A DNA stretch of 47,296 bases from a virus (lineage: Duplodnaviria; Heunggongvirae; Uroviricota; Caudoviricetes). Positions 33,001 to 39,000 of this stretch are shown one piece after another (the stretch's first letter is position 1; each line of letters begins with the position of its first letter). The stretch lies in IMG/VR virus record IMGVR_UViG_2879765931_000007. One strand, 5' to 3'. The position numbers are program-made.

Positions 33001-36000
33001 CAGTTTATGTGCAAAAATGCAAGAACTTTTTTAAAGCTGCATCAACCTTTCCACCAGTTTATCTCTGCGAACAACAAACCAACCATTGGCTCTCGCCAGT
33101 TCCAGCCATGACTCAAGGGAAATAACAATATCATCATCCCGTAACTGAATTATGGAAACAGTGACACCGCCTCTCTGATAACAGAGAACTCGCGTGTCGT
33201 AACTTTTCTGGCATGAAACTGGCGTTGACGGATCCCTTTGACTGAAATAGCAGTCTTCCAGTTTTTCGAACACATCCCACGCCTGATCGGTTTCGAGCAT
33301 TTTGCCGTGGCGTGCTGCGCCTCGTTCTGTCCAGAGGATGAGGGAGCGGGCTTTGGGTGAAACTGGATTTTGTGAGTAGTTTAAAGCGACCCGCAATTCT
33401 TTAAGGTCATTACCAACAACTTTGAAAAAGTGTTTCCCTTCAACGAAGCGTACTTTGTTCTCATGATGATTCTGGCGAATACGCACCGGCTCAGTGCCGT
33501 AAAGCTGCGCCAAAAGTTCGGTGGTAATAACAGGAATCTGTGAGGTGTACTGGCAATAGCGGACACTACCATTTGTTCTTTTTTTAAGCAGCCATCTGAT
33601 GATATTTTTCCCTGAAGGCTGCCGGGGAGATATTCCCCAGACGAGAGTGACGACGCTGACGATTGTAGAAAATCTCAATGTATTCCCGTATTACTGAGAT
33701 GGCTTCATCCCGGTTATTAAAACGATAGTGGCTCAGGCTCTCATTTTTCAGCGTTCCCCAGAAGCTTTCCATCGGAGCGTTGTCGTAACAGTTACCTTTA
33801 CGCGACATTGATGTTTTCAGACCAGACTGCTCCTGTATGACCCGGTAATCGTATGCGCAGTACTGTGAACCTCGATCAGAGTGGTGGATTAGCCCGGCAG
33901 GTGGGCGCTGGCTCCTGAGCGCCATAAACAGGGCTTTACCTGTCAGCTCTTTTGTCATGCGCTCTCCCATGGCGTAGCCGACAATTTCACACGTATAAAC
34001 ATCTTTGATGCCAGCGAGGTACAACCATCCCTCCTGTGTGGCAACATACGTCAGGTCCGCCACCCAGACCTGATTTGGTGCTGTAGGAGCGAACGTCTGG
34101 TTCAGCAGATTTGGCGCAACTGGCAGATTGTGGTTCGGGTTCGTAGTCGCTCTGAACTTGCGTTTCTGCTTACAGCGTAGCCTTAGCTCCTTACGAAGAC
34201 GTGCCAGTCGGTCACGACCAACGATGATGCCATTCTCTGCCAGCTCCGTCTGGAGCCGCCGGGTTCCATATGTTTCGCGAGTGCGGATATGTGCCACCTT
34301 AATCTCCAGTTTTAGCCGCTCATCACTTTGTTTTCTGTCTGAGGGTTCATGCTGTACCCAGTTGTAATAACCGCTCCTGGATACACCAAATACCTGACAC
34401 ATCGCTTCAATGGGAAATTGTTGTCGCCATTGTTCGATTAACGCGTATTTTTCAGCGACTCCTGTGCAAAATACGCTGTTGCTTTTTTTAATATATCTCG
34501 CTCAAGGCGAGCTTCATTTAACGCCTTACGCAGTTGCAGAATTTCAGATTCCAGTTCAGCCACCGTGCGGGAACCAGGAGTACCGAGCCCTTTTCTGGCG
34601 GCGGTAACCCATTGTCCTAAAGTGCCTTCAGGAAGGGATAATCGGGAAGCGCCTTCACTGATCGAAAGTTGATTTTCAAGAACCGTTCTGACAGCTTCGG
34701 CTTTGAACTCTTTAGAGTAACGTTGGGTTTTTCTGCTCATTATTAGCTCCTTCTGATGCCATTCTATTTCAGGAAGGAGTGTCCGTTAAACTCAGGCTAC
34801 CTCACTGGTTATGGGTGATCGGGGAGAGAGTTTCAACAGAGATTTGAGTGGTCATAACGATAACTCCGTACATTTGGAAATTATCGCCACCGACGACGCC
34901 AATCGAACTGGTGGCGAACTGTGCAGGGTTGGCGTAACCGGGTACGGAAACCGGCGAGCCTTTCGGCTCCCCCACACAGCCCGCCATAAATCGCGAATGT
35001 GACTGTGCAAACGATATGAAAAAAGACGCGGGCGCGTCTCATATCGCTCCGTAAACATCCGGGACGCCAATCCCGACGCCAGATTTTGCTGGCGCGTGAG
35101 GAATATAGCCCCGGATAACAGATTGAGTCAACAAACGGTTTTTAGATCCCCGGAAGAGAATGCATCACGCATCGGTAGATAGAGCATATATTCAGCAAGA
35201 TTTAGCCATACATCTACCCGACTGCAGCACGTCCGGTGAAGTGGTCAACAAAAACTGGCCACCGAGTTAGAGTTTTTCCAGTATCGATTTTCCGATTCGT
35301 TTGGGGGTAACCCACCGTTATATTCGTGCGGTCTTAGTGCACTGTAATATCCAACGATATAGTCCGTTATGGCGTGAGCTGCCTCGCTGAAGCTTACGTA
35401 ACCCACCACCGGCATCCATTCGTTCTTCAGACTCCTGAAGAAGCGTTCCATTGGGCTGTTATCCCAGCAGTTTCCGCGCCGGCTCATACTCTGTCTGATC
35501 TGGTATCGCCACAATAACTGCCGGAACTGCCTGCTCGTATAATGACTGCCCTGATCGCTGTGGAACATCACCCCGCCGGGCTTACCACGGGTTTCCCATG
35601 CCATTTCCAGCGCTTTCATGGTGAGCCTGCTGTCCGGCGAGAACGACATGGCCCAGCCCACTGGTTTTCTTGCGAACAGGTCGAGAACAACGGCGAGGTA
35701 CGCCCAGCGCTTACCCGTCCAGATATAGGTCACATCACCGCACCACACCTGATTTGGCTCGGTCACGGCGAACTGCCTTTCAAGGTAGTTAGGGATAGCA
35801 ACATGTTCATGACCACCACGTTTATACCGGTGAGTCGGCTGCTGACAGCTGACCAGCCCCAGCTCTTTCATGAGCCTGCCAGCAAGCCAGCGTCCCATCT
35901 GGTAGCCTCTCCGGGTTGCCATTGTGGCGATGCTTCTTGCTCCGGCCGAACCGTGGCTGATGCCATGTAGCTCAAGTACCTGACTGCGTAATACAGCCCG

Positions 36001-39000
36001 TCTGCCGTCTGGTTTTTCAGGACGGTTTTTCCAGTATCTGTAGCTGCTGCGATGAACCCCGAACACATGGCAGAGTGTGACCACAGGATAATGCGCTCTG
36101 AGTTTCCCGATTATCGAGAACTGTTCAGGGAGTCTGACATCAAGAGCGCGGTAGCCTTTTTTAATATTTCATTCTCCATTTCAATGCGTTGTAGCTTTTT
36201 CCTGAGCTCACGGATTTCAATTTGTTCCGGGGTAATGGGGGAGGCTTTTGGTGTTTTGCCCTGACGCTCATCACGCAGTTGTTTGACCCATCTTGTCATT
36301 GTGGAAAGGCCAACATCCATAGCTTTGGCGGCATCTGCCACCGTGTATTTCTGGTCAACAACCAGTTGAGCGGATTCGCATTTAAACTCTGCGCTAAAAT
36401 TTCTTTTTTTCATTGGAGCACCTGTGTTGTTCTGAGGTGAGCATATCACCTCTGTTCAGGTGGCCAAATTCAGTGTGCCACTTCACGGAAACACCACTCA
36501 GGGTGTGCGTCATTCAGCAATTCAGCCATTTTACGCTTAGTCATCCCCCGCCCTTCATACCGTTGCCGGAGGACACTAATCAATCCAGGATGCTCTGCCA
36601 GCACCTCACTTATGACTCTATCAATACATAACGCCTCTGCATCAGTACAATGCGCCAGCCAGGTCTTTTGCTTGCCATTGATCATCTCTCGCAAAAACGC
36701 TTCCAGCTCAGGTTTCTCTATTCCCGCTTTTTTCATCCTGCGCAGGGCTTCATTGACGGCTGTTTTCGTCAATTTTTTGGATGCCAGCAACTGGTTAAAC
36801 ATATTTCCCGTCTTACCGCCGCCAATATACGACCAGCGCCCCCACATGCGCAGTTTTCCCTGAATCCAGACACTTTCCAGCGTGGTGAGACGAAGGTGTT
36901 CCCCGCTTTTGCCTGTATTTGTTGGGTAAATCATAAATAACCTTCCTTTCTCCAGATTTCTTGTGTGCGAAAAACACCTTCTGCATGCATCAGGCGTAAT
37001 TCTTCTTTGGTGTAATCGCTGGTTTTTACCCGCCCGTCGATTAAATCGTGGCATGAGCTACAGGCAATCGCTGCCTGCATATCGTGTGGTTTTGTCGCTG
37101 TTCCGCACGTCCCCGCCAGCCTGTAATGCGCCAGCACAGAAGTTTCGGGATTGTGATTGCAGTAGCCAGGAATTCTGACGGTGCACATCTGCCCCCGCGC
37201 CGCTTTACGTAAATCCACCATTACGCAAACTCCAGTAACTGCGCGGCCACATTTTCGACTTCCTCCGGAGAGGAAAATTTACGGAACAGGATCCAGTTCC
37301 ACAGCACATTCAGTACAGATTTATAAACCTGCTGAAACTCGGTTTCGTCCATGTTCGCAAATGCGATAGATTTTGCCCTGCGCCCACGACTACCATCAGG
37401 ATAAATATGCTCGGTGTAAAATCCGGCCTGAATGGTTACCCACTCGCGGAAAGCGTCAAACGACTTTAGCAATGCCGTATCCCGGGTTCTGCATGTCGCA
37501 ACTGTATTAAGGTATTGCTCTGCGGCATCACTCAGGGCTGGAGTGTGTTCCCGACCTACTGATTCGCACAGGTAATCAACGAAGCCTGATACCAGTTTTC
37601 GTTCGCGAGGCGTGATCGCCCCACCGACCGGAGTCCAGTAATCAAATCCCAGTTGCAGGAGTTTGAAAAAACGCTTGTGGAATGCGTAGTTACGCACACG
37701 CTTAAAGTCTGCGTGTATCCACTCACCTATTTTGATTTGATGCAAAAAATCGCAACTCTCCGGCGTCGCCGGGAGAAGTAATCCGGAAGAGGTTTGTTTG
37801 ACCAGTTGTATATGCGCCATCGTAGTTCTCCGCTGGCGCAGTAGAATGGGTGTTCAGCCCGTTATGTAGTATACCAGAATTAATGCCAATACTAACAGGG
37901 TAATGCTGCCAACTTACTGATTTAGTGTATGATGGTGATTTTAAGGTGCTTGCGTGGCTTCCATTTCCATCAGATGTCCTTCCTGCTCCGCTACTGAAGG
38001 CGTGGTGCGTAACGGCAAAAGCACTGCCGGACATCAGCGCTATCTCTGCTCTCATTGCCGTAAAACATGGCAACTACAGTTCACTTACACCGCCTCTCAG
38101 CCCGGTACGCACCAGAAAATCATTGATATGGCCATGAATGGCGTCGGATGTCGCGCCAGCGCACGCATTATGGGCGTTGGCCTCAACACGGTTTTACGTC
38201 ACTTAAAAAACTCAGGCCGCAGTCGGTAACCTCGCGCATACAACCGGGCAGTGATGTGATTGTCTGCGCTGAAATGGACGAACATTGGGGCTACGTCGGT
38301 GCTAAATCACGTCAGCGCTGGCTGTTTTACGCGTATGACAGGATACGGAGGACGGTTGTGCCGCACGTCTTCGGTGAACGCACTCTGGCCACACTGGAGC
38401 GTCTTCTGAGCCTGCTGTCGGCCTTTGAGGTCGTGGTATGGATGACGGATGGCTGGCCGCTGTATGAATCACGCCTGAAGGGAAAGCTGCACGTTATCAG
38501 CAAGCGTTACACTCAGCGCATTGAGCGACATAATCTGAATCTGAGACAACATCTGGCAAGGCTGGTACGGAAGTCACTGTCGTTCTCAAAATCGGTGGAG
38601 CTGCATGACAAGGTCATCGGGCATTATCTGAACATAAAACACTATCAGTAAGTTGGAGTCATTACCTACTAACAGGATGCTCTGACTCGCAATTCATCCA
38701 GCAGTTTATCATTTCCCATAATGTCACTTACCCTCATCGGTAAAAAAATTGCCTTTCGACCATTACGATACATTATTGATTTTGGGGTTTCAGGGAAGTA
38801 ATCCATTTCGACTATAACTGACAGGTCATCACGACGTATGACTGCGTATTTGCTACTAAATAGTTTCTTTATTTTTTCCACGATGCCCCCAGGTTTATAA
38901 GTACAAACGGTTATATCCACATAGAGACAAAAATATTAATCTGATAAATATTTATTTCACGCCGTATATTTGATTGTTTAATGTGCAAGTACAATGACTT

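Follow-up and report, generated by a model that had tools for sequence, protein, structure and literature searches.

A probable Q-to-late-operon junction carrying an IsrK-C4 antisense-RNA cassette in a decayed lambdoid prophage of a Shigella-type genome

Regulation by C4-type antisense RNAs is well known from the immI (c4-icd-ant) regions of phages P1 and P7. As in the P4 CI/seqA system, a processed antisense RNA there carries two recognition elements; these are complementary to paired sites upstream and downstream, the downstream sites cover the translation start of the antirepressor operon, and the specificity classes differ by compensatory changes, all features that recur in the locus described here. 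The corresponding region of Gifsy-1 has the order antQ, PisrK, IsrK, orf45/STnc1160, anrP, isrJ (Hershko-Shalev et al. 2016, PMC4825925). Most Gifsy-1 transcripts end at the IsrK terminator, the read-through RNA is translationally silent, and IsrK provided in trans switches translation of the antirepressor on (PMC4825925). In the experimentally defined late control region of phage 21 (record OL657228), a Q-binding element (QBE) of two subsites lies in the 17-nt spacer of the promoter and is followed by the start site, the pause TAAGCTG, a terminator, tRNAs and a pinholin gene. Here we analyse a 47,296-nt stretch of viral DNA (IMG/VR record IMGVR_UViG_2879765931_000007; hereafter the window, taken at its full length) and conclude that it probably contains the Q-to-late-operon junction of a decayed lambdoid prophage in a Shigella-type genome, composed of a Q21-type Q gene, an IsrK-C4 cassette and a late promoter/terminator unit that we call P2/T2. 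The module is read on the minus strand throughout.

Directly after the Q gene, a scan finds the promoter TTGACT-18-TATATT (35131-35102), which agrees with the consensus at 10 of 12 positions, and an intrinsic terminator about 61 nt past the -10 (stem 35040-35023, with a T-run after it). Both elements had been noted in a first-pass annotation of this DNA, which put the terminator about 65 nt after the promoter and took the pair for a classic pR'/tR' arrangement; it is this last assignment that does not hold, since the element matches the Rfam families isrK, c4-a1b1 and C4 and occurs in other Q contexts as well as without Q. By itself the promoter match is no better than chance, the scan giving 3 promoter-like sites versus 5.2 +/- 2.5 in shuffled sequences. 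We nevertheless take PisrK as real because it is homologous to the experimentally tested isrK promoter of Gifsy-1, which drives lacZ to 280 versus 3 Miller units (PMC4825925). In the interval from Q to the antirepressor gene, matches to three Rfam families exceed the respective gathering scores: the c4-a1b1 motif (RF03163, 35108-35056; 52.2 bits, gathering score 46.7), the 77-nt IsrK RNA (RF01394, 35095-35019; 75.6 bits, gathering score 50) and a C4-type antisense RNA (RF01695, 34991-34907; 77.6 bits, gathering score 45). The Rfam C4 and isrK models are known to pick up immunity RNAs of the P4 CI/seqA type (PMC10111431). Within IsrK, decoy site b1 (35070-35064) occupies the loop of the second hairpin and decoy site a1 (35053-35047) lies in the 3' half, and C4 presents its element a' in a hairpin loop (34950-34942) and b' in a single-stranded stretch (34935-34929). 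The target region before the antirepressor gene (34906-34856) holds site b2 (34902-34896), which pairs with b', and site a2 (GTACGGAG, 34871-34864), which contains the GGAG Shine-Dalgarno sequence 9 nt before the ATG at 34855, so that the C4 target covers the translation start of the antirepressor gene.

Support for these pairings comes from an alignment of 16 distinct cassettes taken from the window, Gifsy-1, an Stx2a phage and viral contigs. The elements b1, b' and b2 switch jointly between four classes (GGCGT/ACGCC/GGCGT, GGAAC/GTTCC/GGAAC, AGCAC/GTGCT/AGCAC and GGAAA/TTTCC/GGAAA). A formal covariation count made on ten sequences found b1 and b' paired in 100% of cells, with 5/8 pairs compensatory, and b' and b2 paired in 95.8% of cells, with 4/8 pairs compensatory, compared with at most 48% paired in slid controls for the b pairings. 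Furthermore, a' co-varies with a2 and with the mimic site a1 across cassettes (in the window, a' CCGTAC versus a2 GTACGGAG), and cognate duplexes of the C4 core with its target are about 6 kcal/mol more stable on average than non-cognate ones. Whole-RNA duplexfold predictions for C4 with either IsrK or the downstream region were no better than shuffles. On the strength of the Rfam matches, the covariation of the b and a elements and the antirepressor gene downstream, we assign 35131-35023 as the head of an antisense-RNA cassette of the P1-immI/Gifsy-1-isrK type.

The antirepressor gene is itself interrupted by an insertion sequence (IS), IS600, leaving a 5' part of 17 codons (MTTQISVETLSPITHNQ, 34855-34805) that begins at the ATG and a 3' part (33540-33031), the restoration of which is contiguous with an intact Escherichia coli prophage (L001) at 98.5% identity. 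Removal of IS600 restores a 185-aa protein that matches ORF6N (PF10543, E=1.9e-19) and, over positions 1-187 of 187, the anti-repressor family PHROG 2379 (E=1.9e-92), and it agrees with AnrP of Gifsy-1 at every one of its first 27 residues; a search of NCBIfam gave no match for this protein or for the restored Q. We therefore assign the gene after IsrK, which had been read as the first late gene, as an ORF6N antirepressor under predicted C4 control, and not as a late structural or lysis gene. The direction of regulation in this cassette is inferred from the experiments on P1/P7 immI and Gifsy-1. On that basis, a constitutive PisrK would yield mostly terminated 77-nt IsrK RNA, and read-through past the IsrK terminator would give the C4 antisense RNA, whose a' and b' elements would pair with a2 and b2 over the Shine-Dalgarno sequence and leave the ORF6N antirepressor untranslated. 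The mimic sites b1 and a1 of IsrK would in turn titrate C4 and switch the antirepressor on. A further difference concerns orf45, which in Gifsy-1 ends in an ATGA overlap with anrP, whereas the equivalent frame in the window opens at an ATG at 34987 inside C4 and continues in frame without a stop into the antirepressor gene (34987-34805); the window lineage could thus produce an N-terminally extended antirepressor isoform instead of using translational coupling.

The layout as a whole resembles that of Gifsy-1, with Q, PisrK, a terminated IsrK, a C4-like RNA, an ORF6N antirepressor, a second promoter/terminator unit, tRNA and lysis genes in common, and near-identity extends over the promoter, IsrK, the b sites and the first 27 residues of the antirepressor. 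The two differ in their Q proteins (PF06323, 82-type, 225 aa in Gifsy-1; DUF1133, Q21-type, 184 aa in the window), in a'/a2 specificity, in the unit that follows the antirepressor (IsrJ in Gifsy-1, P2/T2 in the window, with unrelated sequences) and in the IS disruption of Q and antirepressor in the window. Unlike the P1 plasmid prophage, the window carries its cassette in a lambdoid prophage beside Q, and unlike P1/P7 immI it has the upstream sites in a separately terminated small RNA (sRNA), IsrK, and an antirepressor of the ORF6N type.

The assignment has to be weighed against the model of the first-pass annotation, in which 35131-35102 and 35040-35023 form a Q-dependent pR'/tR' and IsrK is a short leader like lambda 6S RNA or StxS. 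That the stop codon of the restored Q overlaps the -35 had been correctly recognised (TGA 35130-35128 inside TTGACT 35131-35126), and a terminated RNA of about 77 nt comes after it, a layout also known from lambda and from phages 21 and 82. The same juxtaposition of Q and PisrK is seen in Gifsy-1, and pR' leader RNAs with sRNA activity are known, for example StxS of Stx phages (PMC7547250). On the other hand, the homology between window and Gifsy-1 starts at the -35 (TTGACT versus TTGACA) and extends through IsrK and C4 to the start of the antirepressor, which places the same promoter and leader behind AntQ, a 225-aa PF06323 protein without BLASTP similarity to the window Q. The binding element that a Q protein recognises at its own promoter differs from one Q family to another. 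In the Stx2a phage, moreover, the cassette follows the Dam methylase gene and lies upstream of NinG and of a PF06530 Q, and a second copy in the window (within 8450-9340, plus strand; isrK 8501-8577 and C4 8602-8689 by Rfam, with a Rha-family, PF09669, gene from 8747) has no Q gene upstream of it or nearby. One promoter sequence thus serves three contexts, which argues that PisrK is not a Q-loading site. Examined as a Q-dependent unit, 35131-35023 has the intrinsic terminator and lacks both a Q-specific promoter and a pause element: the initial transcribed sequence GCGCCAGC contains no TAnnnT pause-like element at +1 to +8, and the closest approach to one, CAAAAT at about +8, coincides with the loop that the Rfam c4-a1b1 model shows as conserved in its first hairpin. 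The conserved bases near the PisrK start are accounted for by the c4-a1b1 hairpins and by pairing with C4. As 50 cassette-free relatives moreover carry P2/T2 at the Q stop instead (see below), we regard a Q-dependent pR'/tR' at this position as improbable.

The second cassette in the window is heterospecific to the first, from which it differs in both b and a elements (GGAAA/TTTCC and CTCGAGTG/CACTCGAG), and its Rha gene is followed by an IS copy from about 9288 that has a twin at 43813. A third copy suspected at 41.4-41.7 kb was dismissed, as neither alignment nor Rfam shows anything there and the BLAST rows belonged to another locus (L002). In one viral contig (L017, 3023-4660) PisrK, IsrK and C4 are kept, the antirepressor gene is lost and b2 no longer matches b'; downstream of C4 this locus has Rfam matches to sRNA-Xcc1, STnc100 and AgvB (anti-GcvB), and its sequence appears to show rapid module exchange directly after C4.

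If PisrK does not serve Q, the cognate promoter should be sought elsewhere, and a comparison of relatives points to a unit after the antirepressor stop, P2/T2, which is intact in the window (33022-32911). By comparative reading it consists of a -35 TTGCAT (33022-33017), a TG-extended -10 TTCAAT (32999-32994) and a -10-like pause element TAAGCT (32988-32983), and RNA folding places the terminator T2, AGAACCCGC-TTTAT-GCGGGTTTTTTT, at 32936-32911. We compared 80 viral contigs with close DUF1133 relatives of the window Q, 30 of which bear the cassette in the window layout and 50 of which are cassette-free. In the cassette-free loci Q has a different C-terminal tail, and its stop codon overlaps TTGATT, from which a segment homologous to 33022-32911 continues. 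The P2/T2 core is present in 79/80 loci, the exception being the shortest cassette-bearing locus, which may end before the unit. The geometry is constant in form: the window has a spacer of 17 nt and a gap of 5 nt between the -10 and the hexamer TAAGCT, and the same spacer and gap are found in the cassette-free loci L033 and L055 (TTGATT, TTCAAT, hexamer TATGCT) and L052 (TTGATT, TTCAAT, TACGCT) and in the more distant loci L088 (Q 63% identical; TTGAAT, TTGAAT, TAGGCT) and L087 (Q 42% identical; TTGAAA, TTAAAT, TATGCT). L085 (Q 46% identical) combines TTGACT, a 16-nt spacer, TACGAT, a 5-nt gap and TATAAG, and the annotated phage 21 promoter combines TTGACA, a 17-nt spacer, AACACT, a 7-nt gap and TAAGCT. 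Where a run of at least 5 T can be measured in DUF1133 loci, the T-run of a GC-rich intrinsic terminator lies 63-76 nt past the -10. The distant loci L085, L087 and L088 run on into holin or lysozyme genes, either directly or past 1-2 unassigned or methylase open reading frames (ORFs).

The unit is thus constantly associated with this Q family and combines a pause-like hexamer at the start site with a terminator. Because it abuts the Q stop in cassette-free loci and its geometry is fixed across lineages and like that of phage 21, we conclude that 33022-32911 is probably the cognate pR', pause element and tR' of the window Q. The likeness to phage 21 includes a homologous Q, a promoter at the Q stop (in the cassette-free relatives), TA(N)GCT by the start site, an intrinsic terminator, tRNAs and, in the intact relative L001, a class II holin after them. 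It does not include the -10-to-hexamer gap (5 nt in the window, 7 nt in phage 21) or the QBE sequence, which is not conserved; DUF1133 has an extra insert of about 30 residues, and in the window lineage a 0.85-kb cassette lies between Q and the late unit. Read in this manner, P2/T2 would be a weak TG-extended promoter with a sigma-dependent pause element TAAGCT and a strong intrinsic terminator, its promoter activity and Q-responsiveness being predicted from sequence. Like lambda 6S RNA and StxS, it should give a constitutive terminated RNA of about 80 nt in the lysogen. The predicted P2 leader folds at -33.7 kcal/mol (z = -3.95) with a clear T2 hairpin; unlike lambda 6S RNA and StxS it matches no Rfam family even at permissive thresholds, the best score being 21.5 bits for isrK against a gathering score of 50.

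Several observations weigh against this reading of the locus. The P2 -10 hexamers (TTCAAT, TTGAAT, TTAAAT) have T and not A at position 2 and the consensus scan does not flag P2, the activity of which would depend on the TG extension; the pattern scan does not flag the T2 terminator either. A Q21-like direct-repeat QBE was sought in P2, where only a loose TTGnnnnnTTGnnnnn repeat recurs, too little to call. The 80 viral loci are close relatives whose agreement partly reflects shared ancestry, with about five lineages being independent. Where the cassette is present, the stop codon of Q overlaps the -35 of PisrK, as would be expected of a Q/pR' pair, and the C-terminal variants of DUF1133 Q, ...LPMRDAFSSGDLKTVC (184 aa) and ...IPMRESFAQKIA (180 aa), co-segregate perfectly with the presence or absence of the IsrK cassette across the 80 loci (L003-L082), which could mean co-adaptation and not mere linkage. 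Finally, an AlphaFold2 model of DUF1133 built on a 12-sequence alignment is too poor to confirm the fold (predicted local distance difference test, pLDDT, 50.9; predicted TM score, pTM, 0.31), the C-terminal helix pair being its best predicted part.

The weak, unflagged -10 would also suit a view of P2/T2 as a conserved 3' untranslated region with terminator, or as a stand-alone sRNA gene, with the late promoter located elsewhere, for example upstream of the tRNAs or the holin gene. A promoter-like sequence, TTTGCA-18-TATTAT (32861-32832), does lie between T2 and the first tRNA and might drive the tRNAs without Q. Yet P2 is the sole conserved element between Q stop and terminator in cassette-free and distant loci, its spacing is fixed, and its layout matches the experimentally defined layout of phage 21, which together make this view very improbable.

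A different possibility is that both units respond to Q, with Q loading at P2 and either Q or read-through from the early operon driving the cassette, so that the antirepressor is coupled to the lytic cascade. It would fit the finding that two Q systems, with Q proteins from separate Pfam families, have the cassette in the same slot between Q and a cognate leader unit, and the reports for Gifsy-1 that AnrP increases transcription of antQ and that IsrK favours induction (PMC4825925). With the cassette also present in the nin region of the Stx2a phage and in a Q-less context, and with no sequence evidence of Q loading at PisrK, we consider such dual control quite unlikely and retain P2/T2 as the candidate Q-responsive unit.

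The second of the two Q systems is that of Gifsy-1 itself. There anrP is followed by IsrJ (L083, 33530-33395), which has the promoter TTGCAA-17-TATATT, and then by the tRNA and lysis genes. A Klebsiella phage with a Q sharing 60% identity with AntQ carries an IsrJ-homologous unit (L089, 1470-1640) that abuts the Q stop and precedes a tRNA and lysis genes, and in several other phages of Klebsiella, Enterobacter and E. coli an IsrJ-like sequence overlaps the gene annotated as Q. This comparison points to IsrJ as the leader RNA of pR' in phages with an 82-type Q. A broader proposal, which we put forward as speculative and unlikely, is that the cassette is a mobile regulatory insert settling repeatedly between Q and its cognate late promoter, that IsrJ is the Gifsy-1 pR' leader, that antirepressor release is wired into the early-to-late switch, and that the orphan RNAs in Shigella are still expressed and could act in trans. 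If this were true, orphan IsrK, C4 and P2 leader could silence or de-silence antirepressors of incoming phages of the same b/a class.

The Q gene begins, as previously annotated, with an ATG at 36934 that overlaps the YbcO stop as ATGA, and is split into a 5' part (codons 1-150, 36934-36486) and a 3' part (codons 150-184 and stop, 35236-35128) by IS911. Removal of IS911 and one repeat copy in silico yields a 184-aa ORF. The restored Q matches Pfam DUF1133 (PF06576) over positions 1-175 of 176 (E=2.7e-108) and PHROG 753, 'anti-termination protein Q-like' (E=1.4e-80), and scores barely above the gathering score of 26 with PF06530, Phage_antitermQ (27.6 bits). In hhalign, a DUF1133 alignment matches phage 21 Q with 98.3% probability (E=1.4e-14) over 138 columns, and phmmer finds the PDB chains 6p18/6jnx at E=0.013 and, when run against 1.8 billion representative proteins, recovers a Q21-like protein (E=2.8e-4). 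The restored protein thus aligns with Q families, and we assign it as a DUF1133 protein and Q21-type antiterminator. The DUF1133 family is small (76 representatives at 50% clustering by phmmer, many of them short fragments), and the literature searched contains no mention of it.

The interrupted Q retains 150 native codons followed by 4 IS-derived ones and loses 34; the truncation reported in the first-pass annotation therefore stands, with its count of about 32 codons revised. The cut falls after Q residue 150, equivalent to about residue 124 of Q21 in the hhalign alignment. In the DNA-binding helix-turn[loop]-helix (HT[loop]H) element of Q21 the B1-B2 loop spans residues 105-121, directly ahead of the cut, and the next helix reads the Q-binding element, and the last six residues of the protein touch RNA polymerase (Yin et al., bioRxiv 10.1101/651190). 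The severed 3' part of Q encodes a TCxxR(I/V)xxWLxxAExxLYxPMxxAF helix that aligns with Q21 residues 122-150, the second helix of HT[loop]H, and holds many columns that are invariant in DUF1133 and conserved in Q21 too. As the IS911 cut removes both this conserved recognition helix and the C-terminus, the truncated Q is very probably non-functional.

Both insertions had been described correctly, including their clean target duplications. IS911 (36485-35237, 1249 bp) is 99.0% identical over its full length to a PGAP-named IS911 and is flanked by the 3-bp duplication CCG (36488-36486 and 35236-35234; CGG on the plus strand). IS600 (34804-33541, 1264 bp), which splits the antirepressor gene after codon 17, is 99.8% identical over its full length to IS600 and is flanked by CAG (34807-34805 and 33540-33538; CTG on the plus strand). 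As expected of the IS3 family, both are complete, carry terminal repeats, are bounded by a 3-bp duplication and have empty sites in relatives. With both removed in silico, the repaired 1505 nt align in a single piece to intact E. coli prophages at 95.6% identity and are covered to at least 80% in 129 complete E. coli genomes; these genomes and L001 provide empty sites for IS911 and IS600 alike. An exact-match search for the IS600 junction gave two genomes, those of S. flexneri SFBU1023 and strain ECMA0423 (L090/L091), which are 99.8-99.9% identical to the window across the region. They share the IS600 junction and the same upstream IS1 and are without IS911, and their intact 184-aa Q is identical to the restored Q and thus a natural empty site; an exact-match search for the Q/IS911 junction in a collection with one genome per species found none. 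Because the IS600 insertion is common to other S. flexneri-type genomes that are without IS911, we place it as the older event and the IS911 insertion in Q as a later, lineage-specific one. The two IS-split genes represent ordinary prophage decay. A second interrupted antirepressor copy near 45575, suggested by an apparent 22-nt extension of the IS600 inverted repeat, was discarded after sequence reading showed over-extension.

Upstream of Q, the window carries genes of the nin region, for DUF1367 (37820-37221; PF07105, E=4.8e-98) and a YbcO/DUF1364 nuclease (37221-36931; PF07102, E=1.4e-45), in the order DUF1367, YbcO, Q that is also found in L001, and its collinearity with an intact E. coli prophage extends from 45596 to position 32512, where tRNA-Gly ends. 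An IS1 copy (37899-38669), present also in SFBU1023 and ECMA0423, lies between the DUF1367 gene and a hok/sok module (39157-39481; Hok 39369-39157, sok 39481-39307, Rfam RF01794).

Downstream of P2/T2, a cluster of four tRNAs (32822-32512; ARAGORN, Rfam and L001 annotation) has a CAT anticodon, annotated as tRNA-Ile in L001, followed by Arg-TCT, Thr-TGT and Gly-TCC. In L001, P2/T2 and the same four tRNAs are followed by genes for a class II holin, lysozyme, spanin, terminase, portal and capsid. The late region of L001 has no match anywhere in the 47,296-nt window, which past the tRNAs contains a tyrosine integrase, IS1 and IS600 copies, fragments of tail-fibre and tail-fibre-assembly genes and a Sit-type ABC transporter; the larger downstream ORFs scanned (integrase, tail-fibre fragments and Sit-type transporter genes) include no lysis or morphogenesis genes. 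Late genes downstream of P2/T2 are thus present in L001, L085, L087 and L088 and were not found in the window. The first-pass annotation had proposed that two independent insertions probably abolish late expression. The insertions are indeed clean and independent and Q is disabled, but silencing of the late operon is not attributable to them, the proposal being moot because late genes were not found in the window and the target of IS600 is the antirepressor gene.

The tyrosine integrase gene (29542-32396, minus strand) starts about 115 nt past tRNA-Gly and is interrupted by an oppositely oriented IS911 (31045-32292), the flanks of which show no obvious 3-bp duplication on quick reading. This layout looks like an island integrated at or near the prophage tRNA cluster and replacing the late region. 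The Sit-type metal ABC transporter comprises four genes (20423-23872, plus strand), the first three with Pfam matches to ZnuA-like, ABC_tran and ABC-3; on either side lie an integrase fragment (19308-19961) and tail-fibre remnants (24073-26792). An IpaH-type effector gene (4209-5924, 571 aa, with LRR_TTSS and NEL E3 ligase domains) adjoins the sRNA CssrB (Rfam RF02799, 3898-4080), and the presence of both is consistent with an ipaH/sit prophage-remnant region of S. flexneri.

Taken singly, the components of this locus are of kinds already known, namely a Q21-type Q, an immI-type IsrK/C4 cassette and IS3-family insertions. Modestly new are a candidate site of Q utilisation for the DUF1133 family, the finding that in two systems, whose Q proteins belong to different families, the cassette separates Q from the cognate late unit, and the implication that the Salmonella sRNA IsrJ may be a pR' leader RNA. 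For the annotation of such prophages, a promoter and terminator directly after Q are not automatically pR' and tR'; here they head an antisense-RNA switch for an antirepressor, beyond which the late unit probably lies. For Shigella, the locus points to a stepwise prophage decay driven by insertion sequences, IS600 and then IS911, through which three small regulatory RNA units (IsrK, C4 and P2/T2) and four tRNAs have stayed intact in the window.

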